From assembly GCA_030167865.1 (NCBI GenBank), contig JALAGF010002830.1, forward strand, positions 1-35,514: a stretch of 35,514 bases of DNA. Direction: 5' to 3'. The stretch comes from Craspedostauros australis (Eukaryota). The notes under the pieces were generated by a model that did not search any database, was not told where the DNA came from, and saw only the letters and a list, made by a program, of their open reading frames with translations. Every line of letters starts with the position of its first letter. The stretch's first letter is position 1. The position numbers and the translations under genes were made by a program. Of this stretch, positions 1,196 through 30,539 are shown piece after piece.

Positions 1196-1960
1196 TTAGA
1201 TCTTGCTCAGAATCACGCGGTGGCCCTGATCCTCCAAGCGCTGCTTGATCGGGATGGCGTCATCGCCGTTGAATGGCTTGACGTTGTCCATCGGGTAGGC
1301 CATCTCCAACGCTTCGTACTTTTCGCGGCCGAGCTCGTGGTATGGAATGAGCTCGATGGCGTACGCCTCGACTTCCTTCGCAAAGTCAGAAAGGGCGTTG
1401 AGCTCGGCATCGCTGTCGGTCATGCCCTTCATCAGGACCCAACGCAGGGTGATGTTGGTGCTGGGGTACTTCTCGTGGATGTAACGTGCGAACTCCTTCG
1501 ACTTCTCCATCTCGTGCACTGGCACCTGCGCGATCTTGCTGGCCAGCTCGTTGTCCATGGCCTTCAGGCAGAGGAGGACGTTGTTGGTGACGGGGAGCAC
1601 CTTGTCCCAGCGTGCTTGGTTGCCGTAGCTGGCCGTGTCAAGGCAGGTTGTGAGGCCGAGTTTCTGGACTCGCTGGAAGACATCACGGACGAATTCGGTC
1701 TGGATCATGGCCTCGCCTCCAGAAAGCGTGATTCCGCCTCCGTTGGGCTGCAGCCATTCCTTGTACTTGCCAACCAACGAGGCGACCTCGGCGGAGGACA
1801 TGGCGTACTCTGGATGTTGGCGAGGATCGGCCATCTTCTGGGTTTCTGGGTTGCAGCAGAAGAGGCACTTCTTGGTGCATCCCTGCAGGAAGACGGTGGA
1901 GCGGATTCCTGGACCATCGGTGGTGGAGAAGCTCTCCATGGAGTACACGCTGCCCAGGAC
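1196..1960 (-). other. pflA: PFL-activating enzyme (radical SAM) domain of the fusion protein
   Basis: Aligns by eye, against my recollection of E. coli PflA, from start to end: [59 protein letters not shown], through to GHRVIL. Confidence 0.93.
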
Positions 1961-4870
1961 GGCACCTTGCTTCATCCCCTCGAGCTTGTCGACATCGGTC
2001 TCCTTCGCAATCTCCGCTTCGTCGTCCACGTCCTTGCGCGCCATCGTGACGACGCTGGCGGAATGCATGGTCCTGGCCATCACCTCTTCGCGCTGCTCTG
2101 GCGTGAGACGATTGAATCGGACGGCGTATCCGCTGACACGGATGGTCAGGTTGGGATACTTCTCTGGATGGCGGTGGGCATCCTGCAGGACCTCTCGGTT
2201 CAGTACGTTGATGTTGAGATGGTGTCCGTTGTGGTTGAAGTATCCATCCAACACGGTGACCAGGTTCGAAGAGCGCTGGCTCATGTGTCCCAGGGCACTC
2301 GGGAGGAGGCAGAAGGTGTTGGAAATGCCATCCATACACTTGCTGTACGGCACCTTGGCGACAGAGGAGAGCGATGCGAGGGCGCCGTTCTTGTCGCGTC
2401 CATGCATTGGGTTGCATCCGGGAGCGAATGGTTCACCCTGGAGACGACCGTCGGGGCTGGCTCCGGTTGCCTTGCCGTAGACCACGTTCGATGTGATGGT
2501 CAGGATGGACAAGGTCGCGGCGGCATCGCGGTACAGCGGCTGCTTGTTGAGCTCCTCGTAGAAGCGAGACACGACCTGGATGGCCAACGAGTCGACGCGA
2601 TCGTCGTCGTTTCCGAACTGAGGGATCTCCCGGCTCGCGTGGCCTCTCTTGAAGCCGATGGTCAATCCATCGTCGTTGCGGATTGGGAACACTTCGTCGT
2701 GCTTGATGGCGGACAAGGAATCGGCCACGACCGAAAGGCCGGCGGCTCCGAAGGCCATGAGGCGGTTGACGTTGCTGTTGTGCAAGGCCATCTGGACGTT
2801 CTCGTAGCACGCGCGATCGTGGGAGTAGTGGATGGTGTTCATCGTCTCGGCGTAGAGCTTGGCCATCCATGGGATGGCGATGTCGAAGTACATGTGCTCC
2901 AGCGAGCTGTAGTTGATGGGTTTCTTCTCGTCGCCCTTGCCGATGCCGAGTCGCTGGCATTCTGCCGCGAGCTCCGGGCAGACGTCGTCGCCGTGCATCT
3001 CATCGCGACCTCCGTTGAGGCACATGAGCAGCAGCTTGACCATGTTGGTACGGGCTCCGAAGAACTGCATGTCAACGCCCACGCGCATTCCCGAGACGCA
3101 GCATGCGATGGCGTAGTCGCTGCCGAAGATGGATCGCATCATGTCGTCGTTCTCGTACTGGATGGACGAGGTGGCGATGGACTGCTTGGCACAGTAGTCC
3201 TTGAAGGGAGCTGGAAAGTTCTGCGACCAGAGCACGGTGAGGTTTGGCTCTGGTGCTGGTCCCAAGTTGGTGAGGGTGTGGAGGAAACGGAAGGTGGTCT
3301 TGGTGACCATGCTCTTTCCATTCTCGAAGCAACCACCCAGGGCGAGGGTGAGCCAGGTGGGATCACCGGAGAAGAGGGCGTTGTACGCCGGTGGACGCAG
3401 GTGGCGGACGATGCGCATCTTGATGACGAGATCGTCAATGACCTCCTGGACCTGCTGTTCGTCGACCTTTCCATCCGCCAAGTCGCGCTCGGCGTAGATG
3501 TCGAGGAACGCGTCCCAACGTCCGACGGACATGGCGGCACCGTCCTGCTCCTTCAGCGCCGCGGTATGTCCCAGCCACATGAACTGGGCGGCGTCCTTGA
3601 AGCTGGTGGCGGGAAGCCTCATGTCGACGCCGTAGCTGTCGCCCATGACGAGGAGCTCCTTCAAGCCCTTGACCTGCTTCGTGATTTCGGAGCGGAGCTG
3701 CAGAGTCTCCGCGGATGCGCCCTTCACGGCGTCGTAGTCCAACTTCTTGCGGCGGATCAGCTCGTCGACACCGTACAGGGCGATGCGACGGTAGTCGCCG
3801 ATGATGCGGCCACGACCGTAGGCATCTGGAAGGCCCGTGAGGAGATGGGTATGGCGGGCCTTGCGCATCTCCTTGGAGTACATGGAGAAGACGAGGTCGT
3901 TGTGGGTTTGGACATCCTGTTGGCATATTTGTGAATTGGCGAAGTGTGCATTGCGTGGGTTGTGCGTTGCGCAGGTTGATTGATCATCATTTGTTATTGG
4001 ATTCGGTCCAAGTTCGATCAGTGTGGAGCAAAGCGAGACGAAGTGGCGCAAGATCAAGAGGGAATGGAACGGAACAGAATGGAACAGCGTGAGAACACTC
4101 GCATGGAACATACACGGAGATGAGATGAGAACGCGATGCACAAAATGTGGAGGCGTCGATGTTCGGAATCACATTTCTCGCGAAGCCTGCACATTCTGGG
4201 AATCGTGTGGTATTCCCGCGCGCCGATGGATTGCACGTTGCGCTTCGGGTGCTTGTGTGCGACGTACCTGGGTGTACTCCCTGGCCATGTCCTCGTCAGG
4301 CTCGTAGCCGTAGCTCTTGAGGGCGCTGCCCACGACCTTGAAACCTCCCTTTGGCTTGCAGGAGCGCTTGAGAGGCTCGTCGGTTTGGACACCGACGATG
4401 AGATCTTCCTCCTTGGAGAGGACGTATCCTGGCCCGTGGCTGGTGATGGTGGACGCTGTCTTGGTGTCGACGTCCAGGATGCCGCGCTGGCGTTCGAGCT
4501 CCATGAGCTCCTCGCAGCGTGCCCACGACTTGTTGGTGCGCTCGGTGGGACCGGCGAGGAAGGACGAATCGCCATGGTATGGCGTGACGTGCTCCGACAC
4601 GTACTGCTTGACGTTGCAGTCGCCTGGGAGCCCGGCTGGGTTGGCGACCTTGGGGAGCTCGGTGCCATCGTGCATCATGGGCTCCTGCTTGGCGGGGCCG
4701 GAGCCAACGACAGTCTTCGCCAAGTCGAAGAGGAGGTTGTTGGCGTTGCGGAAGGATGGGAAGGACCCATGGTTTCCGCGGACCGCCGGCTTGGACGGGC
4801 TGGTTGGGCTGTTGAGGTTGTTGCCATCAGAGTACTGAAGGCGAACGCGGTGGGAATGGATGTTCGACAT
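1196..4870 (-). CDS. pflB-pflA: Pyruvate formate-lyase (formate acetyltransferase) fused C-terminally to PFL-activating enzyme (radical SAM); exons 4870..4268 and 3916..1196, about 1107 aa
   Basis: Exon 1 carries the PFL N-terminal motif [15 protein letters not shown]. Splicing gives [14 protein letters not shown]...[23 protein letters not shown]. The catalytic Cys-Cys (AIACCVS, about 3098-3103) and the glycyl-radical loop [10 protein letters not shown] (Gly codon 2129-2131) are present. With no stop, the frame continues through a 34-aa linker into a PflA domain ([14 protein letters not shown] = CxxxCxx[23 protein letters not shown]). The ATG at 4870 is the first in-frame Met; the true start is unverified. 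Confidence 0.95.
3917..4267 (-). other. Spliceosomal intron (351 nt, phase 0) in the PFL gene
   Basis: Minus-strand donor CAG|GTACGT at 4267 and acceptor CAACAG|GAT at 3917. Removal joins two PFL-homologous ORFs in frame where bacterial PFL reads roughly FTEYRKTHNQGVF. Confidence 0.9.
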
Positions 4871-6946
4871 GGTCTTGACGTGGAACGAATGCACTGGCGG
4901 TGCAAAGTAGGCGAGGATGAATATGAAGTAATGCAATGGGGAGAGTCGGCAAGAAAACGTGATGGTGTCTTTGCCTGGGTGGTGGTGCTGCTGTAGCTGT
5001 TGCTTTTGTTGTTGCTTTGTTGCTGTGATGGTGGTGATGTGGTGGTTGATGTCTTTGGTTGGGATTTGCGTTTTGTGAGCAGAAAAGGAAAGGGAAGGGA
5101 AACAGTGACGGCAACGGCACCTCACTGCGGGGCATCAATGGAGAGATGACGGCGAAGAGAACCAACGAAGAAGGTGTGGAGAAAGCAAAGAAGAAGAAGG
5201 GCGTTGGCTCGCTTTGGCTTGGTGGAAGGAGGAATGCACCATACCAACGTACGTCTGGTTGGAGGTTTCACAACCCGAACCGTCAATCGTTTGGCGCGAT
5301 CGCGAACCCCACGAAATCGCGAAAACTGCGGCGATGCAGGAACGGTGTTCTCGTCTGCATCACGTTCGCGGCCACAAACGGCGATGGCCAAGAGCAACCA
5401 AGGGAGGAGGATTCTGGACAACATCCGAGAGTTTGGAGGAACTCTGCAACGGTCCTGCGAGAGAAGGAGTCTACTCGTGCTATTACACTTCCATGATTAG
5501 GAACAGAACCAATCGAGAATGCGGAGGGTTAGTTGGCGACGTGGGTGATGGAAGAGATTCGAAGACCGACTCCTCTTTCGCCAATCCCGCCAATACTTCG
5601 CACTGAGCTGATCGTATGGTGTGTATAATAGGTAATGGAGCAGCGTCGTCTCCTCCATTGCTTATCTACGATCTACCATACGCTCCTACCCTTCTCGGGC
5701 TTCTGGATTGGGGCTTCTCTCTTTGCTTCTCTGTGATCTCTGGAAGCAATCCGGCATAATCCGATGCGTCGACCAAGGGAGGAATCGGCTGTCGGCGCAG
5801 TTGTTGTCGGTGCTGAATCTGAAGAAATAGTGTACTGCTCTATTCCATGGCATACTAGTATATGTCCATGAGATTACGAACGTTATGGAATGAATATAGG
5901 TAGTGTATTCTCTCTCTCTCCCTTGAAGAGAAAGAGAGAGACTATGTACCTACACACAGTCAACAGCACCATCTTGATAGAATCCTCGGAAATGATCTGG
6001 TCCTGTTTCGTAGTTGTCGCCATGGTACTCAAATAGACCCTCATATGATTGATGTTCGCATTTGATTTCTGTTCAAGTTTGGGTTCTCGTTTCAAACACG
6101 CACATTGGCATGTGCCGAAGAAGGAACTCCAAGGAAAACGCGTGTTTTGTGGGCTCCTGTTGGAGTTCGTATTGGCGGCATGATGCTGATTGCGTCAGGA
6201 GGCGCCATTTGGTTGGAGGAGAGGAGCACACAGACGAGGAGGGAATCAAGACACGGCAAACAGCGAGGAACAGGATGCCGTCAACATCAAAGACATCATC
6301 AACATCTGCGACAGGTGGAGGCACCGACAGAGTGAAGAGCACGAGAGTGCACGAGAGTGTGCAGAGGGCGACCCCGAAGAACACAGTAAGAGCGGAGCGC
6401 AAAGCCGAGAAGGTCGTTGCTGCCATCGTCATCGTCATCGCCGGTGGTGTTCGTGTTGAAGTCACACATCATTGCATTCTCAATTGGAAGCAGAACCGCA
6501 TAACCATCCAACCGCACAACCACACCATCAACGAGGAGAGGACCATCTCTCGCAGGCGCCACATCACGCCCACCAGCTCCCCTTTCTGCTCTCTTGACAC
6601 GCAGAACATCTTCTCTGTATCCGTGCTTCGACATCACCACAACTGCCACTGCTGACATCAGCTCATACATTGACCACAGACACCGTGCTATACTCTGCCG
6701 TTCCCCATCATTCAGTCTGCAATAGAGTAGTTGTTGCTGTTGCCACAACTTATCAAGGCATCCGATTCGTATAATTGGTCGTAACCAAGAAGTCAAGGCG
6801 GCAAGCAACCAAATACTTCCACGCTGTTCCACCATACAAAGAAAGCAATTCATCACAACTCCACTCCCACCACAACCGCCGCCTCCATCCCCAACACAAC
6901 TAGAGTGCCAGCAACTGCCGCAACAATACAGACGTGTAGAGCAATC

Positions 6947-8422
6947 ATGGACAGCCCAGCGGAAACCACGGCACCGACCGTCGACACCAACGCCGAAAGC
7001 GTGAACGGATCTACCAGCAACACGAGCAATAGCAACAGCAGCGACCGCAACAGAATTCTTGCGACGGAAAATGGAACTGCGCCACCGGTGGTCCATGCAC
7101 CGCCAAACGCAATGCCCGATCCTGCCACTCCCGGTGCGCCATTCCACACACAAGCATCCTGGGACGAAGAGGCTGGAATGCGCTTGAGGAAGAACGCAGG
7201 AGTGGCATCCAACGCGGCTGCGACAAAGGACGCAGCGGGTGCACCCATGAAGCGTTCCCATCACACCGCCAATGATGGTCCAAATTCCAGCTTCTCCGCG
7301 CAAAAGCAGGGTGGACTTGTGGATCATCAACGTCAGGATCAGCCCATCGCGATCAAGTACACTGCCACCAAGACTCCCAAGAGCACCCTGAATGCGGTGT
7401 ACGAGGTGGGCAAGTACAAGGCAGGGCTGCCGCTCGATCTGCTCTGCATCCAGTCGATCATGGCGGGCATTTACATCGGCATGGCCGGTCATCTGTACCT
7501 CGCACTCGGTGGTGGCGTGCTGGGCTCCGTCTTCTTCCCAACAGGTTTGATCGCCGTCACCCTCACGAGCGCAGAGCTGTACACGGGCGATGCTCTCGTG
7601 TTCGTCGCATCAGTGCTGGGCAAGAAGGTCACCGTCGCCAAGCTCCTTCGCAACTGGACCGTCTCCTGGACGATGAATTTCGTCGGTGGCTTGTTCTGGG
7701 CCTACGTGCTGGCGTACGGTTCGGACGCGCTGGACGATGCTGGAGCTCGCGAGCTTGCCATCAAGATCGCCATCAAGAAGGCCGACCAACCCTTCTACCA
7801 AATCTTTCTCAAGGGCATCGGCGCCAACTTCATGGTCTGTCTGGGTGTCTGGCAGGCAACTTGCGCCGAGCAGGTGGCGGGCAAGATCCTGGCGCTGTGG
7901 TTCCCCATCTCCGGTTTCGTCATCATGGGCTTCGATCACTCCATCGCCAACCAGTTCTTCATCCCGCTCGGCATGATGCTGGGCACCGGCGACGAGCACG
8001 AGATCTCCTTCGGCGATCTGTTCTACGCCCTCGCCGCAGCCACAATTGGCAACGCTGTCGGTGGCGGATTGATGGTCGGCGCCGTGTATTGGTACGTCTA
8101 CGACTCCATGGCACGCAACACGCGGGTGCTGGGACAGCTGCGACGGCGATTCAACAACACCAACCAAGACGATGTGCCGCCGCCGCCGCCGCCAGGATCC
8201 GACGATCCAATGACCTCGGACCGCTTCATCACGCTCCAAGTCAGCGCCGACGGTCGGTCGATCCGATCGATGGGCATCGCGGACGGCAACCAATACCCGA
8301 CTGCAGCAGACAACGATGACAATGACATGCACGGCCATAACGAGTTCATCCCGGTGCAAATGAAGTCAACGAGCATCCATCGTGGCAGGCTGGAGAATGA
8401 CGGTGGTCTCCGTCTCTCATAG
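6947..8422 (+). CDS. Formate/nitrite transporter (FNT; FocA/NirC/NAR1 family), 491 aa with long hydrophilic N- and C-terminal extensions
   Basis: FNT motifs AGIYIGMAG, FPTGL...AELYTG, NFVG, KGIGANFMVCLGVW, KILALWFPI..F..GFDHSIANQF (conserved channel His) and TIGNAVGG, with several hydrophobic helices. First ATG is at 6947. Confidence 0.93.
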   Translation: MDSPAETTAPTVDTNAESVNGSTSNTSNSNSSDRNRILATENGTAPPVVHAPPNAMPDPATPGAPFHTQASWDEEAGMRLRKNAGVASNAAATKDAAGAPMKRSHHTANDGPNSSFSAQKQGGLVDHQRQDQPIAIKYTATKTPKSTLNAVYEVGKYKAGLPLDLLCIQSIMAGIYIGMAGHLYLALGGGVLGSVFFPTGLIAVTLTSAELYTGDALVFVASVLGKKVTVAKLLRNWTVSWTMNFVGGLFWAYVLAYGSDALDDAGARELAIKIAIKKADQPFYQIFLKGIGANFMVCLGVWQATCAEQVAGKILALWFPISGFVIMGFDHSIANQFFIPLGMMLGTGDEHEISFGDLFYALAAATIGNAVGGGLMVGAVYWYVYDSMARNTRVLGQLRRRFNNTNQDDVPPPPPPGSDDPMTSDRFITLQVSADGRSIRSMGIADGNQYPTAADNDDNDMHGHNEFIPVQMKSTSIHRGRLENDGGLRLS

Positions 8423-9099: not shown

Positions 9100-10890
9100 A
9101 TGGCATCGACCTTGCGACAAAGACGCAACGCCAACGGGGCTGCAGATGATGGCACGAAGGGCGGAACTGCGTTCGCAGCATCCATCTCTCAACCATCTCA
9201 GGAGCACACCTCCGAGAGAGCCTCGGGACTTCGGAAGAGCGAGACGCTGGTCCCGATGGACGGTGGATCGGCCGCAGTGGACGAGACGGCCATCCCCACG
9301 GCTGACGAGCCGACGGAGGCACCGAAGCATGTCTCCGCCATTCAGGATGCCAACCATCCGACTGCGCGACCCCAGGCTTTCCCGCATTCCTCATCATCTG
9401 TCGACACGGAGCAGCTCCGCGATGGTGGATCCAAACAGGGTGCAGCACGGGGAGAAGCACAGCTGCAAGCGGAGGCGGAGGCAGAGGCGAGTGCGGGGGA
9501 AACAACTCGGGGACCGATGACTGGGAAGCAGGTCGCCAAGGATGAAGCCAGGATCAAGAAGGTCATCACGCGCTGGGTCAGCGGCCTCGTCATGATCAGC
9601 TGCTTCATCGGCTGTCTCGCCATGGGGCACGTCTACGTCGGTCTCATGGTGGTGCTGGCGCAGGTCGCCCTGTTCCGAGAGCTGGTCAAGGTGCGCTACC
9701 ATGCGCACTACGCCACTATCTCGGGCGGGACGATTCCGCTGTTCCGCACGTTGCAATGGATGTGGTTCTGCGTCGCCATCGCCTACACGTACGGCGACTT
9801 TGTTGCCGAGATCATCCAGCACAATCCGCAGCTGCACGGATACCTCAACATGGCGCACTACGCAACCATCCTGTCCTTCGCCCTGTACTCAGGAACGTTC
9901 GTGCTGACCATCGCCACCATGCAGGTGGGGCACATCAAGTTTCAGCTCAATCAGCTGTGCTGGACGATCGTCGTGCTGTGCCTGACGGTGGGTCAGCTCA
10001 AGTACATCATGCACAACATCTTCAACGGCCTCTACTGGTTCGCATTGCCCATCATGCTGGTGGTTACGAACGACTGCATGGCGTACATCTGCGGTCGCAC
10101 GTGCGGTCGCAAGTTCATCCACCGCCCCTTCATCGCCTTCTCCCCCAACAAGACGTGGGAGGGCTTCATCGGCAGCGGGATCTTCACCATCATGTTCTCG
10201 TGGTACCTGAGCCGCCACCTCGCGCAGTACAAGCTGATGACCTGCCCCTGCAACGAATTCAGGCTGATTCCGCGTCCCATGGAATGCGAGCCGCATCACG
10301 TGTTCCAACCAAGCCAGTCCATCCTGCCGCAGCAAATCTTCGAGGTCTTCCCACCATCGTTGGTGAAGCTGATCCCGGGCATCGTCGAATTCTGCAGCGT
10401 CAAGGCCGGCCAATCCCAGTTCCCGCTCGGCAGCAAGCTGGAACTCGAGATCACGCGCTGCATCTCGGGCGAAGAATCGCACTCATTCCACCACTTCGAG
10501 CTGGTGCTGAAGAATGTGTACCCCGTCCAGATCCACGCTCTGTGGCTGGCCCTGTTCGCCTCGCTCGTGGCGCCCTTCGGCGGATTCCTCGCCAGCGCCA
10601 TCAAGCGCGCCTACGGCATCAAGGACTTCGACTCCATCATCCCGGGTCACGGCGGTCTCATGGATCGCGTCGACTGCCAATTCCTCATGGCCCTCTGCAC
10701 GTGGGTGCATTACAACACCTTCGTCAAGCTGGCCACCGTCAGCGTCCCCAAGCTCATCTACATGTACTCGCTGCTGTCGCAGCCTGAGCAATCGCAATTC
10801 CTCGTGGATCTCGTGAAGGCGGAAGGCGACGTGCTCAACGCGACGCAGATCCAGCAGTTGCTGAACGTATTGAAGAAGCAGCTGCATTAG
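9100..10890 (+). CDS. CDS1: Phosphatidate cytidylyltransferase (CDP-diacylglycerol synthase), eukaryotic CDS1/2 type, 596 aa
   Basis: Signature motifs SPNKTWEGFIG and APFGGFLASAIKRAYGIKDFDSIIPGHGGLMDRVDCQ; multiple transmembrane segments; uninterrupted ORF. Confidence 0.95.
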   Translation: MASTLRQRRNANGAADDGTKGGTAFAASISQPSQEHTSERASGLRKSETLVPMDGGSAAVDETAIPTADEPTEAPKHVSAIQDANHPTARPQAFPHSSSSVDTEQLRDGGSKQGAARGEAQLQAEAEAEASAGETTRGPMTGKQVAKDEARIKKVITRWVSGLVMISCFIGCLAMGHVYVGLMVVLAQVALFRELVKVRYHAHYATISGGTIPLFRTLQWMWFCVAIAYTYGDFVAEIIQHNPQLHGYLNMAHYATILSFALYSGTFVLTIATMQVGHIKFQLNQLCWTIVVLCLTVGQLKYIMHNIFNGLYWFALPIMLVVTNDCMAYICGRTCGRKFIHRPFIAFSPNKTWEGFIGSGIFTIMFSWYLSRHLAQYKLMTCPCNEFRLIPRPMECEPHHVFQPSQSILPQQIFEVFPPSLVKLIPGIVEFCSVKAGQSQFPLGSKLELEITRCISGEESHSFHHFELVLKNVYPVQIHALWLALFASLVAPFGGFLASAIKRAYGIKDFDSIIPGHGGLMDRVDCQFLMALCTWVHYNTFVKLATVSVPKLIYMYSLLSQPEQSQFLVDLVKAEGDVLNATQIQQLLNVLKKQLH

Positions 10891-15730: not shown

Positions 15731-17590
15731 ATGGCATCGAAACGTTCTCTCTCAACGACCCGCCACGCCAAGATCCAGAATACTGGAGGCAGAGCATCAG
15801 CGGAAGGAGCACGAAGAAAGATGAGACTGGCCAATTCTGGTTCGAAGGTGGACAACGCGGTTGCCCATGGCCGTACCACATCCAATGGCGGCCAGTCCAT
15901 CTGTGCGGCTGATCTCGAAAGCAGCAAGCCGTCTCCCAATCGTGCCAGTGCCCGCGGACAGCCAGGATCGGCAAAGCCAAAGCGGCCAACCCAGCTCAAG
16001 AACAAAAACGACAACGACCCGACGACGCTGTTCCCATACGTGCTGCATCAGCTCCTTGACGATGTCGCGAAAAGCGGCAAGGACAGCATCGTATCATGGA
16101 ACGGCATGGACACTTTCCGAGTGCACGATCGTGAAAGGTTCATGATCGAGATCCTGCCCAAGTACTACCGGCAGACCAAATACAAATCCTTCCTGCGGCA
16201 GCTGAATCTCTGGGGCTTTCGTTGCATAGATTCCGGCCCCAAGCGTGGTTCCTGTAAGTATCTGCGCTTGCATATGACACTCTCTTGTGCCATGTATGCA
16301 CATGGTACTCGGTTCAGAATGCGGCACATACTCTAGCCAACAGTGCCTGCTCATCAGTTTGGCCATGTCCCCATCAATTCACTGCATGAAGTGACCTTCA
16401 TGGAACGGGCAACACTTGTGGGCAACACTTGTGGGCAGCACTTGTGGGCAGCACTTGTGGGCAACATGTCTGAGTGTACCTTACTCGTATTAGTATGCAC
16501 GACACTACCCGACGATGGCGCCATACTCACATCCTGTCCTTCCTCTGAACTCGATCATGCCAATACTCATATACCGCCAGATCAACATGCTTGCTTTGTT
16601 CGCGGCAATGAGGATTTGTGCGCCAACATGAAGAGAGTCAAGATCAAGGGAGCCAAGAGTCGAAAGCTGCTGCAGAAGAAGAAGAAGCAAAGTTCCAGCG
16701 TTCCAAACCAAGGCCGTTCACTCAAGAAGAATGGAAGCAAGCTGGCTGCATCGAAACAGAGCAAGCGTACCAGTCCTCCTACCGAGGGGATCGCTTCTCA
16801 GCTCGACACCAGCGACGATGCTGATTCTCAATCGAATGATCCAGGTAGCGACCCGACAGCTCCGACAGACTTTGATTGTCTCCCAATCGTATCGCCGACC
16901 GATCCTCAAGAAATATCTCCGTTGGTGGCGGCATCCTTGTCAACCAACACGGCAGCATCACCAACAACACCAAACAGACCACGCCCAACAGAAACGATGG
17001 TCTCACCATCCGGGCTGAGTCCTCAGAAGACGGCTGATGGATCGATCCATGCTGGACCAGTTCCTCCCACCGACGATCCGATGACACCGTGCTCTATCGG
17101 TACACCACATGGCGAAAAGTGCGACCGTCTAGACTTCTTCCGGCGTGATTTTTCTCCATACAATCTCCCAAGGCTGCATTTGCAACAACTGGAACAACAG
17201 CAGTTGCAGCAGAAGTTGCAGGAGCAAGCTCGCGCCAATGCGATCGCGCGAGTCCAAGTCCAAGTCCAAGCATCACAACTGCAGCAGCAGCAGTTACAGC
17301 TGCGACAGGGATTTGGATTGGCGCAACAGCAGCAGCAACGGAGAGAGGAGCAACGAGATTGGCTCCAGAGCATCGAGGAAGCCTTCACGTGCCAGGATGC
17401 TGTGAGCGCAAACAATTCATTGCAATTTTCTACCACACCAAGGATGATTTCCTCACCATTCTCCATGAATCATTCTAATTGCTCTCAACGATGGTCGAAT
17501 GGAACGATCAGCGATTTTGGATCATCACAAATCATGGATTCTTCTACCATGCTCATGAAGTGCCTCGAACCAAGGCCCTTCCGCGCATGA
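15731..17590 (+). CDS. Heat shock transcription factor (HSF-type DNA-binding domain); exons 15731..16253 and 16581..17590, 510 aa
   Basis: HSF DBD: FPYVLHQLL..IVSW..FRVHD..F..EILPKYYRQTKYKSFLRQLNLWGF, completed after splicing by Y-QHACFVRG..LCANMKR. It is followed by a basic NLS-like KKKK, a S/P/T-rich region and a Q-rich segment. Confidence 0.9.
16254..16580 (+). other. Spliceosomal intron (327 nt, phase 1) inside the HSF DNA-binding domain
   Basis: T|GTAAGT donor at 16254 and CCGCCAG| acceptor at 16580; the join yields the conserved Y-x-H-x-x-F-x-R-G. Confidence 0.88.
16407..16466. repeat. 13-bp minisatellite GGGCA(A/G)CACTTGT, about 4.6 copies, intronic
   Basis: Read directly: two copies with A, two with G, then a partial copy. 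Confidence 0.9.
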
Positions 17591-18168: not shown

Positions 18169-21100
18169 TTATCTCCATGGCCGCCGAGGTGTTCGTGCAG
18201 CGGTCACTCCTCCTGGCGTCGTCATCGTGATCGCCATCGTTGGTGTCGGCGTTGATGTTGCCGCTTCTGCTCCTGCATGCGGACCTCCTGGTCGCCCTGT
18301 TGATGGCGCCATTGGCCGTGTCTGATGGTGGCGGGGGCTGGTCAGCTCAGTTTCCAGGGAACGGATTCGAGCCTTCAATGATGCCACTTCGATCTCCTTT
18401 TCCTCCTCTAGCTGATAGACGTGAGATCTGAGCTGCGAGGCCTCGTCCTGGCTCTCCTGCAACGAATTTTTCGCTGACATCGCCAAGCAGGCAGCGATCT
18501 CCTCGGCACGGATCTTCATGGCACTAGTGTGCAAATCATCCGTGATTCTGGTGACATATAGTTCCGGCGCCGCAAACTTCACTTGGCTGTTTTGAACAGG
18601 GATGGTTTGGTGGACACCAGAGCTGCGGCTGCCGATATTGACGTTGGTGGGATGGTTGTTCATCGCGTAATCCTCCTCCTCTATCCACGCAGAAGCGGAA
18701 GACTGCGTGCCAGGCGAAACCACGTCGGGGATCTGTCTAAAGATGTCCTCGAAACCACGAAAGTCGTTGCTCTTCGATGCAAGCCGCGACAATCGCTCCC
18801 TGCCTATATGCAAACTCTCAAGGCAAAGGTCACGCTCTCGTCGGACACGGTCGTTCGAAGATTCCAAGAGTGCCACCCGCTCCAACAAGTCGCGGCGTTC
18901 TCGCGAGAAACGCTGCGTGTCATCAGACGAGGAACGTTCGCGTTCCAATATACGGCGTTTCGTCTCGGTCTGGAAGCTTTCCAATGCGATCTTCATGTCT
19001 GTAATGCGATCTTCCGAGCGTCTGTAATCATCCCTGACTGCCAACAGCTCGTGTTCCAAGCGCTCGATGGTCGTAGACTTGATGCGAAGCTCCGACTTGA
19101 GTTGGTCTTGGTCCAGCGAGTTGGAGGTGAACAGCCGATTTTGCGAATCGAATTGTTCTTGCAGCTGCAGATTCTTGCGTTGCGACTCCTTGAGCTCCAG
19201 CTGGAGGGATGAGAGAGTCGTTTCCATCGACACGATCTTGGACTCGTAAATTCGTTTCTGCGAGATGATTTCTTCATGAAACTGCTGCACTTCGATGGTC
19301 AAACGCCTGTTCTCGGTTCGGAGATGATTCGCATCTTCCCCGGCCCGCGACATGCCTGCCTCCGACTGCTGCAACCGATGCAATGCGCTGTCGAGATCCA
19401 TTTGCAGGCTGCTGTTCTCCTTCCGGAGTTCTGACAGCTGCCTCTCCAGGTCCTCGATACGAGCTTGCAGCTCCAGGATCGTGCGATCGGACAGCTCCGC
19501 GCTCTTTCGTTCACTCTCGCGCAGAGCCGCCAGTTCGGCCGACGACCTCTCCAACTGCATGCGCAGCTTGCCTGCCTCTTCCTCCTTCGCGCTGACGTCG
19601 TGGAAGTACTCAGATTTGCGCGTAGTCAACGCAGATTCCAATCCAACATTCTCCTGTCGCAGCTGTGCCAGCTCGGCGTGGAGACGATCGATATCACTAT
19701 CCTTCCCAAGACCCTTGCGGATATCCTCCTGCAACCGCTCGATCATCGCCATGTCCTTGAGGCGGCTTGCTGTCAGCTCGTCATGCTCCATCCTCAATTT
19801 ATTGCCCTTCTTCAATTCCTCCCGAAGCTGCTCCTGCAGCTGCTCGGCGAGGTCCGACTTCGTCTTTAGCTTCCGCTCGAGGTGCATCTTGTCCTGCTCC
19901 GTATTGTCGGCCGTGACCTTGAGTCGGTACAATTCAGCGTTGAGCTTGTCGCTCTCGCTCAGCCTTGTTTGGTACGATGATGCTTGCTGTTTCTCCAGCG
20001 AACCAATCGTGGCCTTCAGCGTCTCGACTTCGTGATCCAGCTTGTGAATCGTGATCTGCGCTTCCTTCTCTGCGGCCTGTAGGTCGATATTGTGCTTCAG
20101 CAACGTCTCCTTCCCACCCTCTAGTTCGGCCACCTCGCGGTTCTTGTCGTCAATAGCATGCGAGCTCGCGTCGAGGCGGACGGCGAGATCCTGCTTCTCA
20201 ATTTCTACGGCATTCTTCATGCGCTGCAGCTCTAAGATCTGCCGTTGCATCTTATCCTTCTCGCTTTCCGTCGCGCTTTTGGCCTGCCGCAGCTCGTTCA
20301 TTTGCAGACCGAGGCTGCGATTCTGTCCTTCCAATTCGGCTTTGGTCTTTTGGAGATCCCCGATGCGCTTGGTCAATTCTTGATTACCACCCTTCATCTG
20401 TTGCTGATGTTGCGTCGCCTCGTCAAGCTGGGATTTCAAGGTCTCGTTCTCGGCCTGCATCGAAGCATTCGCCTGTTGCAGCTCTGTTCCATTCTGGAAC
20501 AACCGGCTGATCTCGCCATCCTTCGCCTTGCCTTCCTCCTCCAGAACAATCTTCTCTCGGGTCAGCACATCCTGCTCGCCTTCAAGCTTAAGGATCTGCG
20601 AGTGCAGCTGCTGCACGGCCTCCGACTTTTCGTTGCTGCTTTGCATGAACTGCTCGGCCGTGCTCTCCAGCTTCTTGGCCTTGCTTTGGCTCACGCGGAC
20701 CTCGATGTTGAGCTCCTGGATCGTTTGTCGGAGGGATTCGATTTCCTTCTGCTGCGTTGCTTTCGTCTCTTCTGCTTCCTGCCGCATCTTCTGATGGTCT
20801 GCGCTCGTTTGTTGTTGGTTCTTGAAGTCCTTGGAGATGGCCTGCAGCTTGTTGCCGAGCTCGTTCAGCTGATCCTTCATCCCTGCCTTCTCCTGCTGCA
20901 TTTCCTGCGCTTGGATATCTTTCATTTCCATTGATTTTTGAGCATCGGCGAAGCTCTTCTGGATCACACTCATCTGCTGTTCCAGGTCGCTTTGAGCTGC
21001 GGTCACCTCCTCGGCGACCTTCTCCACCTCCCTGCGTTCGTGGATGGACGTTTCCAGCCGTTCCCTCAGGCTGGCAATCTCATCGTCGCGCCTTTGCATC

Positions 21101-24100
21101 TCGTCGCGGCTGTTCGCGACAACCGTATTGAAGTCATCTCGTGCCACGTCCAGCAGCGACTTGAAGTCATCCCTCTCGCCGACGATCGTCTCCAGCATGT
21201 ACTGCTGCGAAATGCTGGATTCCTTGAGGCGTTGTACTGCCAGTGCGATCTGTTGCCACAGCGTGGAATCGATGGTCCGGATGCGATTGATGGAGGATTC
21301 CAGCGATTCGATGTCCTTGAAGAATCCGTCATTGTTGACGACAAATGTTGTCGATGCGGGAGATCTCACCTTCATCTCGGAGAACAGAGGCGTTGTGGAA
21401 TCGCTGGATGCGTTTGCTGACAGCGCGTTGGACTTCTGTGGGGTCTGATTGGCGCTGATGTCCAGCGGGTTGTTGTGGGAGTTCGATCCGAAGAGATCTC
21501 GATCCTGCACTCCAGCGTTGTCATAAGCACCATCACGATCAGCGGCAACATCATTGTCGCCGTCATCATCGTGGTCGTCGTTCTCATCATTCCATTCGGA
21601 CCATTTCGACATATCAAGCGACTGATCTGGTTTGTTCGGAGGCATGCTGACGTTCGGCAGGCTGGCGGTGTCCACGCTCTGTTCGGTAGCGTCGGGTTGC
21701 GGGCCGAGACTCAAGGACTGCTGCTCCGATATGGTGTCATCGAGGATGTTGGTCGGCTCGATGCCGGATGTGTGGTCGATGTATCGCTTCAACGGCGACT
21801 CGCCGACGGTTGGGGTGATTGCGATTGGTTTCGCGTACCTCGCATTGTCGCCATCGTCATTGGCACCATCGTTCGTATGATCCATGTTACCTCCTTCGTT
21901 GCTCTGTTGATCATCAAAGTAGGACGGGTGCCTCGAATGGTGCGCGCGGATGGATGGTTCCTTCTGATCTTCAGTTGGATTCGTGGACCACCGTGCCGTC
22001 TCATGAACGTGGTGATTCGTCGTCGTCGTCGTTCGGTGCTCTTCGACGCTTTGGAACAACACCGTCTTGACGTTGGATGCTGATTGAGGCAAATCCGGAT
22101 TGTGCGTGCGCGGTGCGGACTTTGGATATGTTTTGGGACTTGGCGGTTGCCGATTCCCACTTTGTGGTGCAGGAGCGCTGTAGCGAGGTATCCTGGATTG
22201 CAACGGATTTCTAACGGCGGGGGCAGGTGTCGGTGCAGGCTCAGTGTTATTGACCGGCACGGTGACAGGCGCCGAAGATGGCGGCGGCGCCCATTCCTCC
22301 GGCATATCGTTGCCACTGGGAACACCGCTATCGTTAGCCGGGATGGGTTGAGACCTTGCTGCTGGACTTTTTGGTGGAGGGGCATTTCTGGGACCTTTGA
22401 TGTAGGCCTTGACGTCGAACTGCTGAAAGTCGGTCATGTAGTTGGATGGTCGGTAGGAATGCGAATTGTACTCCTTGCGCGTGGGTGTCCGTTGGACCTT
22501 GATGGAGGGTGATGCAGGCGTCGCCGCCTTCGGTTTTGGCGATTTGAAGATCTTGGCCAACCGTTGACGTGGATCGCTCAACACTTGCTCCAGAAGGTGG
22601 TCGCTCTTCGCCAGCTCCTTCAATGCTGGCGATGACGGGACTGCATCGTTGCTGTTGGTGGCGGTGTCTGAGTTTGAGGGAGTCGGCACAAGCAACGATT
22701 TGTGAACATCGCCCTCCATTCTGCTGGACGCCTTGAATGGACTCGATGCAGTTTTGCCAGGTCGCACCAACAACCTCTGACAGAAGCTGAGCACGCCCAC
22801 GGTGGCATCGTACTCATCAGCATATGGCGAGATGCTCCCGATGACGACGACCTTGCTGCTGTGCTGCTCGAGCGGCCTTTGCAGAAGTTTCGTGAGCAGC
22901 GATTCTCGGTACGACACGGCCAGGGACGGTTCCAAGGTGGTCTGCTTGACGGCCTGCGGCGTGCCTGTCGCGGTGGAACGCCTCATGCCCGGCGAGAAGG
23001 ACATGATGGAAGCACCCAGCGCATGTTCCTGGATGAGCATCGCGCGCAGGAGATTCCCCAAAGTGACTGTGGACTTTTTCTGCAGCATGCTCTTGGTGCC
23101 GCTGTGGCCGGCGGCCGTGGAGGAAGCGAAGGAATCGTTGATGGACGCGGACGATACCGAGGCCGAGGATGCTGGCGATGTGAAGTGCGGCAGCGCCAAT
23201 TCTACGAAAGTGAGGACCGAGGTGGGTGGTTTTGAGGATTCGTAGTGGGTCGCGGTGTCCCATATGTTGATGGTGGTGAGAAAGAAGCTGACGCCGGGTG
23301 ATGCGGAAGAGGCTCTGGAAGGTGACATCCTGGCGGTGTGCTTGCGCCGGCGCTTCCTCCGCTTGCGTCCCGACAGCGCCTGCGTCAAGGACGGCGTCGC
23401 GTCGATGGGCTGCTCGATCAGGCCGACGAGCTGCGCGCCCTTGGTGTCGGTGTGGCGGATCGTGATGTTGGACGGCGGCATCTTCGGCGGGACCAGCATG
23501 TCGAGGAGCTCCTCATCGTCATCGGCCTCGAGGACGGAGATCATCGCCACGGCCTTGTCGGGCAGCGTGGATTGTAGCTGGTGCAAGACGCGCAGGATGA
23601 GTCCCTCCGATCCCAGACAGTTGGTTTTGTGGCCGATGGAGACGACGCAGGTGGACTGTTGGTGGATGACGGCGTCCTGGGCAACGGCCTTGGCCAGGAA
23701 GGGCATGGTGGAGGTGTTGTGGTGCTCCTTGCCGTTGGTCTCGCTGGTGGTGCTCTGGATGGTGTTGGGCGAATGACCGTTGGATGATGCGGCCTTGGCG
23801 GATGGCACGTAGGACCACATGACGTGGTTGAATTCGTAGAGCCTCGCCCAGTCTTCGGAGCTGATGTGTGCCACCTGCGCCACCAGCTTGGCGGTCTCCA
23901 TGGTGACATGCGAGGGTATGTACCTGCCAAAGGCCGACGGTTTGACGACCACCAGATCTCGCTCCGTGCTCTTGGATGCGTTGATGGCATTGTCCTTGGC
24001 GTCGCTGGAGGTCGATTGTTCACCAGCCTCGGGCATCAGCTGCTGCGGAAAGATGCACTGCTGCCGCTCGCCCGGCTCCTTCTCTTCGCACACACGCACG

Positions 24101-24768
24101 ATGACGCTGACCTTGCGACATGGCTGCAAGGACACCTTGCTGGACAGCTCGTCCCGATCCTGGCGCTTCTTGAGCAACGGCGAGAACGGCGACAGGAATC
24201 CCTGATTGGCCGCCGCGTGTCTCGGCGTGCCGTACACCGGTGGTGCCGTGGCTGGTGCTGCAGTGCTGGAACCCTGCGGCCGATGCGGCGTCTGATAAGA
24301 AGAGTTGGTTTGGATGCTGGTCTGAATGCGAGTGTGAACGCCCGTTGTCTGCGTCTGCGTCTGTCTCTGTGATTGTCTCTGTGATTGTGATTGTGATTGT
24401 GTGGATGCCCGTGGACTTGACGCATCGAGATTGTTCCGACGCCGCGTGACGGAGGGGGACTTGGCGTCGTCCTTGCCTTCCGCATTGGCTGAAGCACCAC
24501 TTCTGCCTCCACCTCCGCCGATCGTCTTGGGAATCGGAGAGACGAAGAGGCTGCTCCCACTTCCTCCTGCTCCTGCTGCTGCTGCTCCTCCGTTGCCTCC
24601 AGCCTTGCCCACCAGGAAGGGAGACGCCACGAAGTCCTCCGACACTGTGGATGCATCCAGCTTGATGCTCTCCGCGGAGATGTCCGTCTGCTCCACATCC
24701 CGCAGGTATTCGGCGAAGGATCGATCAGGAGCATGCGCCTGTGCAGAAGCTTGCGCAGGTGCTGACAT
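18169..24768 (-). CDS. Kinesin-like protein with degenerate motor domain, disordered middle region and long coiled coil, 2199 aa
   Basis: Single 6.6-kb ORF. Kinesin-fold remnants occur in the right order: KVSVIVRV, YEFNHV, ISVLE..E.LLDML, LVGLIE, LTFVELA, KSTVTLGNLL, SYRESLLTKLLQ, VVVIGSISP..YDATVGVLSFCQR. The C-terminal half is E/Q/K/L-rich and heptad-like. Confidence 0.8.
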   Translation of the reverse strand: MSAPAQASAQAHAPDRSFAEYLRDVEQTDISAESIKLDASTVSEDFVASPFLVGKAGGNGGAAAAGAGGSGSSLFVSPIPKTIGGGGGRSGASANAEGKDDAKSPSVTRRRNNLDASSPRASTQSQSQSQRQSQRQTQTQTTGVHTRIQTSIQTNSSYQTPHRPQGSSTAAPATAPPVYGTPRHAAANQGFLSPFSPLLKKRQDRDELSSKVSLQPCRKVSVIVRVCEEKEPGERQQCIFPQQLMPEAGEQSTSSDAKDNAINASKSTERDLVVVKPSAFGRYIPSHVTMETAKLVAQVAHISSEDWARLYEFNHVMWSYVPSAKAASSNGHSPNTIQSTTSETNGKEHHNTSTMPFLAKAVAQDAVIHQQSTCVVSIGHKTNCLGSEGLILRVLHQLQSTLPDKAVAMISVLEADDDEELLDMLVPPKMPPSNITIRHTDTKGAQLVGLIEQPIDATPSLTQALSGRKRRKRRRKHTARMSPSRASSASPGVSFFLTTINIWDTATHYESSKPPTSVLTFVELALPHFTSPASSASVSSASINDSFASSTAAGHSGTKSMLQKKSTVTLGNLLRAMLIQEHALGASIMSFSPGMRRSTATGTPQAVKQTTLEPSLAVSYRESLLTKLLQRPLEQHSSKVVVIGSISPYADEYDATVGVLSFCQRLLVRPGKTASSPFKASSRMEGDVHKSLLVPTPSNSDTATNSNDAVPSSPALKELAKSDHLLEQVLSDPRQRLAKIFKSPKPKAATPASPSIKVQRTPTRKEYNSHSYRPSNYMTDFQQFDVKAYIKGPRNAPPPKSPAARSQPIPANDSGVPSGNDMPEEWAPPPSSAPVTVPVNNTEPAPTPAPAVRNPLQSRIPRYSAPAPQSGNRQPPSPKTYPKSAPRTHNPDLPQSASNVKTVLFQSVEEHRTTTTTNHHVHETARWSTNPTEDQKEPSIRAHHSRHPSYFDDQQSNEGGNMDHTNDGANDDGDNARYAKPIAITPTVGESPLKRYIDHTSGIEPTNILDDTISEQQSLSLGPQPDATEQSVDTASLPNVSMPPNKPDQSLDMSKWSEWNDENDDHDDDGDNDVAADRDGAYDNAGVQDRDLFGSNSHNNPLDISANQTPQKSNALSANASSDSTTPLFSEMKVRSPASTTFVVNNDGFFKDIESLESSINRIRTIDSTLWQQIALAVQRLKESSISQQYMLETIVGERDDFKSLLDVARDDFNTVVANSRDEMQRRDDEIASLRERLETSIHERREVEKVAEEVTAAQSDLEQQMSVIQKSFADAQKSMEMKDIQAQEMQQEKAGMKDQLNELGNKLQAISKDFKNQQQTSADHQKMRQEAEETKATQQKEIESLRQTIQELNIEVRVSQSKAKKLESTAEQFMQSSNEKSEAVQQLHSQILKLEGEQDVLTREKIVLEEEGKAKDGEISRLFQNGTELQQANASMQAENETLKSQLDEATQHQQQMKGGNQELTKRIGDLQKTKAELEGQNRSLGLQMNELRQAKSATESEKDKMQRQILELQRMKNAVEIEKQDLAVRLDASSHAIDDKNREVAELEGGKETLLKHNIDLQAAEKEAQITIHKLDHEVETLKATIGSLEKQQASSYQTRLSESDKLNAELYRLKVTADNTEQDKMHLERKLKTKSDLAEQLQEQLREELKKGNKLRMEHDELTASRLKDMAMIERLQEDIRKGLGKDSDIDRLHAELAQLRQENVGLESALTTRKSEYFHDVSAKEEEAGKLRMQLERSSAELAALRESERKSAELSDRTILELQARIEDLERQLSELRKENSSLQMDLDSALHRLQQSEAGMSRAGEDANHLRTENRRLTIEVQQFHEEIISQKRIYESKIVSMETTLSSLQLELKESQRKNLQLQEQFDSQNRLFTSNSLDQDQLKSELRIKSTTIERLEHELLAVRDDYRRSEDRITDMKIALESFQTETKRRILERERSSSDDTQRFSRERRDLLERVALLESSNDRVRRERDLCLESLHIGRERLSRLASKSNDFRGFEDIFRQIPDVVSPGTQSSASAWIEEEDYAMNNHPTNVNIGSRSSGVHQTIPVQNSQVKFAAPELYVTRITDDLHTSAMKIRAEEIAACLAMSAKNSLQESQDEASQLRSHVYQLEEEKEIEVASLKARIRSLETELTSPRHHQTRPMAPSTGRPGGPHAGAEAATSTPTPTMAITMTTPGGVTAARTPRRPWR

Positions 24769-27651: not shown

Positions 27652-30109
27652 TGGACGAGTGTTGTGTTGCGACGTTTGAATGTTGTTATTTGCAATGGTC
27701 GTATTCGAACGGTTCGTGTCGAGCAGAGCAGGTAGTCTTCGAGCAGATTTGAGAAGAGCAGCAAGGTGTAGTTTGGTATTGTGTGGTCTGGTGTGGTATG
27801 ATCTCACTTTGAGAATGTTGTGATGATGGGGATGGCAGTAGCGATTGTGACTTCTCTATCATCGACTGGCGAATGATTTGTGTGTGGGAAACAGAAGAGT
27901 ATTGTGTGGTCCGCTATGTATTCGTATGGCTTTGGAAGTTCGAATTGTTGGGGATGTGTTCAGTCGAGCAATGGCTGATGGATGACCCGATCGATAATGG
28001 GGGCGCAGAAGAAAGCTCTGCTCGTAACAATCGCGTGGTATGGTACGAATCTCCTTTCGTGATCTGATCTGATCTGATGTGTGATGCTGCATACCAGTCT
28101 TGATCGGCGGCAGAAGCAGGCGGGATGTTCGCGAAGATGGGTTTGTGGGTTGGTTGGATGGGCGGGCCCTGCTCTTTTCTCTGGATTCAAATGGAGGAGG
28201 AGCGACGATGTGTTCATGTGCTTCAGTTTGTGCTCCGCATCGACCAAGTGACAAACATCACGATCGAGACAATGTGGGTGTATGACATGAGACGGCAAAG
28301 TAGCAAGCAATGGAAGGACGAGCTACGACGCGCCGACAACGACGCACCCTCCCCGTTCTGCTTCGTCGAAAGATGACCATGTCGCTTGCTTACTACTCAA
28401 CGTACTTGCGCCATCTATTCCGCCCACCACGGACTTCGCGCATCTTCGTGTCCATCATCTTCGCGGACATGGCCATTCGCTTTGAACTTCGTCGCATCGC
28501 CAATGCTTCCACGCACTCACAAACACGTGCGTACTTATGTATGGGCCCTCCAATTCCTTCCAAGATTACTCGTTTGCGGATTAGATGCGTGTTGGCTGAT
28601 TAACGCTCGGCCTCCGAGAGGGTGGCATTTTCTCTTTTTTGAAACGCCATTTTCACGACTGGCCTGGTTGTTTTGGCGCCTTTTCTCTTGTGTGAGGGAC
28701 TTTTTCATCTCCTTTTCTGTGACTGGCTGGCGCGCATTTGAGATTGAAAGGTAGCCTCTTTTTCGAAGCAAGGGTCTTTTCTGTGTGAAGTCTACAAAAT
28801 AGCCTTTCTCTCTCTGGAGAGAGTGCTGGACCTGACCATCCTCTTCCATATCCTTGGGATCTTCACAGTATCGAGTCTGGACCGAAGCTTTCTTCTCCCT
28901 GCTGTGCCGAGCCTTGCCCGATACCTTGCCTGATACTTTGTTGTCCTGCTCGGTGTCCTCCCTGTCCTCCACTTCCATCCGCTCCTCTCTCATCATGTTC
29001 ATTCTCACGCTGTTCGTTTCTCCCCTTCCTCCCAATTCGAAGGTTGCATGGAGGTGTTCCAATGCCATCTCCTTCGAGGATGGACTTGGTTGCTTCACCT
29101 TTCATTACATCTCATTGCGAAACCCCTCCGCTTTCCAGTTGCCCATCGGGCACCTCTGATGCTTGAGCGGCCAGCAGAAGCAATGCGCATATCATGGCAG
29201 ACAGAGTGAACTTCATGATGGGGTGTGATTCAATTCAATTCAATTCGATTCGACACGATTCATTTCGGTTGTTGGTTGGATTGTGGGAGAAAAGGCATCA
29301 TTTGGAACAGCTGATCAGCGATACAGCACGCAGCACACACCACCGCTGAGCACACAGCACATAGAATGGAAAGAGGAGAGGAGATAGCACAACGATAGTA
29401 CACATACGTACACCACCTGTGGCGGACTGGTGCATGGTGAGACGAGATGAAGCAAACAGAGAAGAAGTGGAACGTATTACACTCGCGAACGTCTGTTTGA
29501 GCATCGAACTCTGTGATGTCGAAATCGTGGCGATTCCTCGCAACAAACATGATGCTTTGAGTCATGTGTACTTTGACAAGTCCCGAGTTGTTTCCCCAAG
29601 CTACATTTCTCGCATCGTCCGACCAAGTCGTGTCACACACTCCAACCGCAAGCCAATGTCCATCGCGATAACGTGACGTGACGTGACATGATGTGACATT
29701 GTGAGAGTGTGAACGCCCACAACACAGAGGACATCACGAAGGACGCAAGAGAGGCTGTGTGTCCCAGAGCGCATCACAGCACCAACAACAACATCCATCA
29801 TTGACTGGCCTCATTTGCGATGTCCAACACGATACCCCAAACTCTTTCAACACGTGTCACAACACCATCGTCCATTGCATGCCATAGTGCATTCCGTGGC
29901 ATTGCCAACAACCTGCACCGACCCTTGCTGAATACCACCTTGGAAGACTACTGTATCAAGAGGTCCATGCCATCTCAGCATACTCCCTCATCGAACTGGC
30001 ACGACACGCACAGCCTCACATGGAACGCCACTCCAGCATCACAGCCTTGACGTACTTGGGATCAGTGCGTGCCATCCCATCGTATCATGTCATGGGACCG
30101 GCCAAGGCC

Positions 30110-30385: not shown

Positions 30386-30417
30386 TACTGTTTGTTTGAT
30401 TCTTGCTCTATCCGACA

Positions 30418-30474
30418 ATGAGCACAGATAAGAAGCCAGCCGTGCCGACGAAGCCAAAGGCAGAAGGCGGCACC

Positions 30475-30539
<65 letters not shown>

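Follow-up and report, generated by a model that had tools for sequence, protein, structure and literature searches.

A gene on the minus strand of a 35,514-nucleotide stretch of Craspedostauros australis DNA (GenBank assembly GCA_030167865.1, contig JALAGF010002830.1; the whole stretch is called the window throughout) encodes, in one uninterrupted reading frame, a putative pyruvate formate-lyase (PFL) followed by a protein of the type expected to activate it. PFL converts pyruvate and coenzyme A to formate and acetyl-CoA by means of a glycyl radical, and in Escherichia coli the PFL system consists of two proteins, encoded by focA-pflB and pflA. Taking all the evidence together, we think it probable that the window holds a genuine intron-bearing nuclear gene of a diatom-like alga, that its product is a single chain in which a disordered tether joins PFL to its activase, and that it is a member of a clade in which such fusions are conserved; from this we infer how the enzyme might be activated and how the fusion might have arisen.

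Gene model and sequence integrity

The listing of open reading frames (ORFs) gave two long ones on the minus strand, in different frames, at 1196..4141 (981 aa) and 4169..5125. Reading of the DNA and scripted splicing join them into a two-exon gene with a product of 1107 aa (Table 1), for which we estimate a mass of about 122 kDa. The exon junction is gap-free in alignments with full-length homologues (Fistulifera, Epithemia, Cyclostephanos and others), and in the nearest relative the ORF begins exactly at the exon-2 boundary. Many other relatives, of about 900 aa, begin at the first Met past this boundary, as is expected if they carry an intron in the same position or close to it. Between the PFL and activase domains there are zero stops and zero frameshifts.

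The first half has the domains and motifs of a PFL. In the ORF 1196..4141, Pfam finds PFL-like (PF02901, 1.3e-148) and Gly_radical (PF01228, 2e-34), and in the ORF 4169..5125 it finds the N-terminus of PFL-like (1e-16, profile positions 8-122). Residues 3-617 of exon 2 align with chain residues 142-755 of 759 of E. coli PflB (1h16) at 685 bits. Among NCBIfam families the best is TIGR01255 (formate C-acetyltransferase), whose model is matched by exon 2 alone at positions 132-742 of 744 with 824.5 bits, while the next, TIGR01774, lies far behind with 220 bits; the cut-off curated for equivalogs of TIGR01255 is 994.2 bits, to be set beside a scored query that covered exon 2. In the numbering of E. 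coli PflB the catalytic cysteines are C418/C419 and the radical glycine is G734 (as given in PMC12338860), and their counterparts here are conserved throughout A1, an alignment of 27 fused homologues that are 53-89% identical to the window protein. Matches by chance are not an issue at the E-values found here or in the second half, and on its domain and motif content the first half would be expected to catalyse the PFL reaction.

The second half has the make-up of a glycyl-radical activase. Radical_SAM (PF04055, 2e-13) and Fer4_12 (PF13353, 2.3e-11) are both present, and exon-2 residues 653-902 align with residues 2-244 of the 245 residues of E. coli PflA (3c8f; 2.1e-46, 158-162 bits). An N-terminal DGxGxR loop is a signature of glycyl-radical activases, and takes the form DGPGIR in the window protein. 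TIGR02493 (PFLA) is the best NCBIfam activase family, with 196.1 bits, followed by NF008356 with 188 and the generic TIGR02494 with 157. Three points weigh against reading this half as an established PFL activase. Its 196.1 bits fall short of the TIGR02493 equivalog cut-off of 231.75; the stand-alone PflA proteins that we found share only 36-42% identity with it, so that its specificity can only be presumed; and behind the third cluster cysteine comes a Cys, where E. coli PflA has a His. By best match and by the partner to which it is fused, the second half would be a PflA-type activase, not a certified equivalog. A search for a separate activase found no close one: matches above about 49% identity lie on short contigs, many with Gly_radical too, and look like fragments of fusions, which is weak evidence for absence.

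The two halves are separated by a stretch that an earlier note on this DNA, made from the letters alone, had described as a charged linker of 34 aa, and which is exactly the stretch left unaligned between the PflB and PflA alignments. We modelled exon 2, without exon 1, using AlphaFold2 and a 27-row alignment (mean pLDDT 72.3, pTM 0.56). Exon-2 residues 615-649 fall below a pLDDT of 50 and have no secondary structure, and the linker is predicted to be disordered. The same note had claimed that the frame runs uninterrupted from PFL into activase with both domains complete; the ORF listing, Pfam, the splicing and the alignments with chains of known structure agree on this, and each of the elements that it described (Cys-Cys, RVSGY, linker and CxxxCxxC) is found at the position entered in Table 1.

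Table 1. Features of the fusion gene, with positions in the window; residues (aa) are numbered in the 1107-aa product, and A1 is the alignment of fused homologues described in the text.
Feature	Position	Strand	Remarks
Exon 1	4268..4870	-	201 aa; N-terminal extension and start of PFL-like domain; last codons ...EYTQ; ATG 4870
N-terminal extension, aa 1-66	4673..4870	-	Precedes first Pfam PFL-like match; Ser/Asn/Pro-rich, net positive charge
Intron	3917..4267	-	351 nt, GT..AG, phase 0, in-frame stop, GC 0.51
Exon 2	1196..3916	-	906 aa and stop; remaining PFL, Gly_radical, linker and PflA in a single frame
Catalytic Cys-Cys, aa 473-474	3098..3103	-	Aligns with CC of IACCVS motif of E. coli PflB; invariant in A1
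RVSGY glycyl-radical loop, aa 794-798	2126..2140	-	Gly797 aligns with radical-bearing Gly734 of E. coli PflB; invariant in A1
Linker, 34 aa	1961..2062	-	14 charged residues (9 acidic, 5 basic); no alignment with PflB or with PflA
PflA-type radical-SAM activase domain, 254 aa	1199..1960	-	Putative, from Pfam, NCBIfam and PDB 3c8f
DGPGIR loop, aa 868-873	1901..1918	-	Identical to aligned E. coli stretch; D, G, P and R invariant in A1
CxxxCxxC (CTKKCLFC; C881, C885, C888), [4Fe-4S]/SAM cluster motif	1856..1879	-	Three Cys invariant in A1; a fourth Cys comes next
GGE motif, aa 934-936	1712..1720	-	Aligns with SGGEA of E. coli PflA; G-G invariant and E nearly so in A1
Stop codon	1196..1198	-	Coding part of exon 2 is 3916-1199

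We also considered whether faulty assembly, a gene in decay or DNA of bacterial origin could mimic a fusion. No sequencing run is on record as RNA for this organism, and contig cover of the gene is patchy. The contigs of one public run, which has 74% of the sampled words of the fusion gene, leave uncovered positions 3747-4587, that is, the intron and its exon flanks, as well as 4946-5400; the splicing is consequently a prediction from the sequence. Against an artefact, a 1621-nt contig of the public run corresponds to 936-2556 with 0 differences, and thereby bridges the PFL-activase junction from the 3' flank through the whole activase and the linker to the glycine loop. The earlier note had named reads with a stop or a frameshift in the linker as a refutation, and the contig, which spans the junction, has neither. 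It is independent evidence of sequence continuity and not of transcription, as the RNA nature of the run is only guessed.

Other observations also speak against an artefact. The gene reads through 1107 codons without a stop and keeps all of its catalytic motifs, and the nearest relative, which is 87% identical, has the same architecture. Each of the 79 bacterial PFL ORFs that we recovered (see below) stops 28-58 residues past the first residue of the glycine motif. The PFL half has a GC content at third codon positions (GC3) of 0.827 and the activase half one of 0.823, the range in five neighbouring ORFs being 0.52-0.82, and the intron and flanking spacers have a GC content of about 0.51. Diatoms are the source of all the closest named proteins. 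The claim that this is a nuclear eukaryotic gene, and not bacterial contamination, is borne out by the intron, by a GC3 like that of the neighbours, and by eukaryotic neighbours of the heat-shock factor (HSF) and copia-like kinds. The artefact or contaminant reading is effectively refuted, and we leave it only a very slight chance.

At its upstream end contig cover reaches 4945, and no other ATG lies between that position and the start codon. An alternative start at Met65/66 was rejected: ATG 4870 is the first in the covered 5' region, and the extension has a motif conserved in homologues. No hydrophobic core of the signal-peptide type is present in aa 1-66 (the highest Kyte-Doolittle mean over 12 residues is 1.26). 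The extension contains two short blocks, VRLxYS(D/E)-like and NHGSFP(S/T)FR-like, that are kept in homologues from both pennate and centric diatoms, and this conservation suggests a role beyond that of a fast-evolving transit peptide.

Several other ORFs surround the fusion gene in the window. On the plus strand, 9100-10887 encodes a CDP-diglyceride synthase (CTP_transf_1, 2.3e-55) and 15731-16333 a protein with an HSF-type DNA-binding domain (7.1e-14). A 1280-aa ORF at 30403-34242 (+) has weak matches to a gag zinc knuckle and to RVT_2, both below the Pfam cut-offs, and is probably a copia-type retroelement. Two further long ORFs lie on the minus strand, at 18169-24768 (2199 aa, GC3 0.70) and 25588-27807 (739 aa, GC3 0.66); neither has a Pfam match at E <= 0.001.

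Distribution and probable origin of the fusion

We searched the exon-2 protein against 5.8 billion proteins and listed the best 120 relatives. PFL-like, Gly_radical, Radical_SAM and Fer4_12 are all present in 71 of them. Eight more, listed as PFL-only (P0059, P0061, P0062, P0064, P0066, P0074, P0076 and P0079), pass through the linker into the N-terminus of the activase, and their similarity to the window protein breaks off at the first cluster cysteines or just ahead of them. Such a break looks like an intron, in or just before the CxxxCxxC region, that was read through by a prokaryotic gene caller; the window gene has no intron in that region. Among the best 120 relatives at least 79 therefore share the architecture, across diatoms, Chromera, a dinoflagellate and euglenids. 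The earlier note had overstated the novelty of the fusion, and had added the caveat that fused forms may already exist in diatoms, as the fused entries from several diatoms confirm.

Fused members from diatoms include the best named match, Fistulifera solaris GAX28273.1 (1107 aa, 74% identity), and proteins of Epithemia, Cyclostephanos, Seminavis, Thalassiosira profunda and Cyclotella atomus. Outside the diatoms we found Chromera velia A0A0G4FZB3 (1101 aa), the dinoflagellate Polarella glacialis, Euglena gracilis EG_transcript_549 (1077 aa) and E. longa. In transcript assemblies of relatives, namely those of MMETSP and Euglena longa, where the entry names mark the frame as complete, and that of Euglena gracilis, both halves lie in one frame. 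The hosts of the clade are diatoms, chromerids, dinoflagellates and, probably, euglenids. Elsewhere among the 120, three eukaryote-like proteins (P0075, P0077 and P0083) end at or shortly past the end of PFL, and P0081 and P0084-P0120, of about 740 aa, are PFLs that stand alone, with 59-60% identity; they include a protein of the green alga Monoraphidium.

The PFL domains were placed in a quick maximum-likelihood tree of 58 rows, with limited sampling of stand-alone eukaryotic PFLs. A clade of 30 rows, with an SH-aLRT support of 100, unites the window sequence with all 27 non-euglenid fused rows and with P0075 and P0083; within it P0001 is the nearest sister of the window sequence, with Fistulifera next. 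Within its limited sample, this tree gives good support to the non-euglenid fusions having arisen once. Two features of the tree tell against one simple history. The branch that places the fused pair from Euglena, at the unresolved base, has a length of 0.0014, so that one origin of all fusions is not established, and P0075 and P0083, although inside the fused clade, end just past PFL; these two may be fragments or secondary fissions.

The homologues vary at their N-termini. By eye, three fused homologues (P0046, P0054 and P0029) have a hydrophobic, signal-peptide-like start and then a motif containing Phe, an arrangement like that of plastid presequences in diatoms. The homologues from Chromera and Euglena and the dinoflagellate-like ones lack an N-terminal extension altogether. 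The compartment in which the fusion resides may differ between lineages.

A second, profile-free scan took the segment from Gly_radical through the linker to the activase as query and covered 1.84 billion cluster representatives. Three representatives of the close clade span the junction, and more distant proteins with Gly_radical followed by Radical_SAM were also recovered (P0270, P0309 and P0324).

We then examined bacterial loci in metagenome contigs. The best 80 loci are all pflB-pflA operons of the bacterial type, with 44-59% identity, and none is diatom-like. None of the 79 PFL ORFs recovered from these 80 loci is fused to an activase; counted from the first residue of the glycine motif, the stop comes after 28-30 residues, or after 58 in a single ORF. 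In 76 of the 80 loci pflA follows pflB within 500 nt, and the two genes are in the same frame in 64 of these 76; in 38 of the 64, the pflB stop is the sole stop that intervenes. The excess of same-frame pairs is probably inflated, which counts against the argument that we build on it, because the locus finder keeps the top tblastn matches and so favours pairs in the same frame. Nevertheless, the loss of one stop codon would turn a common bacterial arrangement into the fusion architecture, with a linker of similar length. This suggests that the fusion arose by read-through of a transferred pflB-pflA operon whose intervening stop was lost. Stairs et al. are said to have proposed in 2011 that PFL and its activase reached eukaryotes together, by lateral transfer from a bacterium, and an origin through a lost stop would fit that view.

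Head-to-head with the fusion gene, about 2 kb from its ATG, lies a gene of the formate/nitrite transporter family (6905-8422, plus strand; Pfam Form_Nir_trans, 6.3e-67). Its best relative of solved structure is the Chlamydomonas LCIA channel (9v2a, 1.8e-38), then FocA (3kly, 1.4e-25), and its product misses the NCBIfam cut-offs for both FocA and fnt; formate, nitrite and bicarbonate are candidate substrates. By analogy, its position beside the fusion echoes the focA-pflB-pflA neighbourhood of bacteria.

Proposed activation by a tethered activase

PFL is described as an inactive homodimer until its activase acts on it, using a reduced [4Fe-4S] cluster and S-adenosylmethionine (SAM) to abstract a hydrogen atom from the conserved glycine (PMC12338860, PMC9326890, PMC8003979). 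This glycine is buried, and the C-terminal radical domain of PFL must open to give the activase access; according to two papers, the full complex of PFL and activase has no structure (PMC9326890, PMC4034769). Once formed, the radical is a liability in air, as oxygen cleaves radical-bearing PFL at the glycine (PMC12338860).

In the window protein the tether starts about 25 residues past Gly797, on the mobile C-terminal radical domain, and we reason that the activase would always be held beside its substrate loop. Under anoxia, a donor of the flavodoxin or ferredoxin type would reduce the activase domain, which would then cleave SAM and take the hydrogen atom from Gly797, either on the same chain or on the partner in the PFL homodimer; the radical loop would subsequently return into the barrel beside Cys473/Cys474. 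For an activase so placed, its own chain or the dimer partner should be a geometrically easy target, and activation should be independent of concentration. The fusion would also fix the ratio of enzyme to activase at 1:1, and place both activities under one gene, one promoter and one targeting signal. Co-targeting is a reasonable expectation, given that some homologues have a signal-peptide-like N-terminus, even though the window copy has none. That the enzyme primes itself in this way, through a tethered activase acting on its own chain or on its dimer partner, is possible, and we put it forward tentatively.

Two observations weigh against self-priming. First, the AlphaFold2 model gives no confident mutual placement of the PFL and activase domains. 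Second, the activase is reported to be made at a far lower level than PFL, both in bacteria and in Chlamydomonas (PMC6732389). Because it is so much scarcer elsewhere, a 1:1 fusion is not obviously advantageous, and it costs one Fe-S cluster per enzyme.

The low abundance of a catalytic activase (PMC6732389) would be easier to reconcile with a polyprotein, in which fusion serves only co-expression or co-targeting and the linker is cut after import or folding, leaving a separate PFL and PflA to act in trans. The linkers of the homologues, which we were able to delimit in 75 of the top 83 relatives, range from 21 to 75 aa (median 33), so that the 34 aa of the window protein fall inside their range, and have no common sequence; they are acidic in the subclade of the window protein and basic or Ser-rich in other subclades. 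A disordered segment that is conserved neither in sequence nor in length would be accessible to proteases, and the signal-peptide-like N-termini of some homologues fit a gain in targeting from a single precursor. On the other hand, no conserved cleavage motif is visible in the 75 linkers. Moreover, if the chain were routinely cut, the gene would be expected to have split again recurrently, yet at least 79 of the best 120 relatives are fused, across very distant hosts. We consider cleavage of this kind unlikely.

Alternatively, the chain might stay intact with an activase that is unable to reach its own dimer and instead activates other PFL dimers, so that the fusion brings no kinetic benefit. 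As the complex is described as having no known structure, and large rearrangements as necessary to expose the glycine loop (PMC9326890), and as our model gives no interdomain geometry, such a constraint is conceivable. Geometry argues the other way: an unstructured linker of 34 aa is long relative to the distance of about 25 residues from Gly797, and is attached to a domain that swings out, and linkers down to 21 aa are tolerated in the clade. Activation exclusively of other dimers therefore seems improbable to us.

If, instead, the self-priming proposal were true, two consequences would follow. The tether could hold the activation complex of PFL and activase together, and so supply a ready-made sample for cryo-electron microscopy or crystallography. 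Oxygen would sever the chain at Gly797 and set an activase fragment free from a dead PFL; we estimate their masses at about 34 kDa and about 88 kDa, respectively. The fusion would then behave as a fuse blown by oxygen, and the freed activase might go on to serve new PFL.

The interest of these proteins lies in the clade, as an unexploited model of glycyl-radical activation, rather than in the window copy itself. A natural and conserved single-chain form, from aerobic algae, offers a way to study how an activase gains access to a buried glycine. It also raises the question of why diatoms, which produce oxygen and are often short of iron, should spend one Fe-S activase on every PFL, as well as the questions of where in the cell the enzyme is sited and of what becomes of the fusion when oxygen returns. 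There is a practical consequence for annotation. Database names of the fused proteins reflect only the PFL half ('formate C-acetyltransferase'), and for this reason surveys for a separate activase in diatoms, chromerids, dinoflagellates and euglenids may wrongly call it absent.

Comparison with two-protein systems and other fusions

When the window protein is set beside E. coli PflB and PflA, both halves align over almost their whole length, with conservation of the Cys-Cys pair, RVSGY, DGPGIR, CxxxCxxC and GGE. The order of PFL followed by activase makes the fusion colinear with the bacterial operon. The two systems differ in that E. coli makes two polypeptides, whereas the window gene makes one, has an intron and adds about 66 aa at the N-terminus.

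Among eukaryotes, Chlamydomonas reinhardtii is described as having a PFL1 and a separate activase, PFL-AE, both nuclear-encoded and associated with dark anoxia (PMC3660698, PMC8003979, PMC6732389). Chlamydomonas thus uses two genes where the window has one. The nearest stand-alone eukaryotic relatives that we found are also green algal, namely an activase from Scenedesmus (42% identity) and the Monoraphidium PFL (59%).

In the full-text literature that we searched, which included algal reviews and had key papers on eukaryotic PFL outside its reach, a natural PFL-activase fusion is not described, and the main text of a 2026 preprint on the anoxia proteome of Thalassiosira pseudonana makes no mention of one. 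A fusion in T. pseudonana has reportedly been remarked on earlier.

Other arrangements show the activase module in different company. P0318 (1095 aa) and P0372 (1113 aa) carry the activase N-terminal to the glycyl-radical enzyme, the opposite order to that in the window; in P0356 and P0398 (440 and 448 aa) the activase is joined to a flavodoxin, its electron donor, and in P0321 (486 aa) to Crp, a cNMP-binding regulator. All of these are about 31-34% identical to the query. These sequences show that the radical-SAM activase module has been fused with its partners repeatedly.

The closest comparison is with the named algal fusions, which have the same order of PFL-like, Gly_radical, linker and Radical_SAM/Fer4_12 and the same catalytic motifs, with 52-74% identity over the 906-aa exon-2 product. 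Those from diatoms also share the motif of the N-terminal extension with the window protein. The algal fusions differ from it in the sequence and length of the linker, in their N-termini and in the positions of their introns. The clade to which they belong is widespread and visible in public databases, and seems to have been little studied; the copy in the window is one more member of it.

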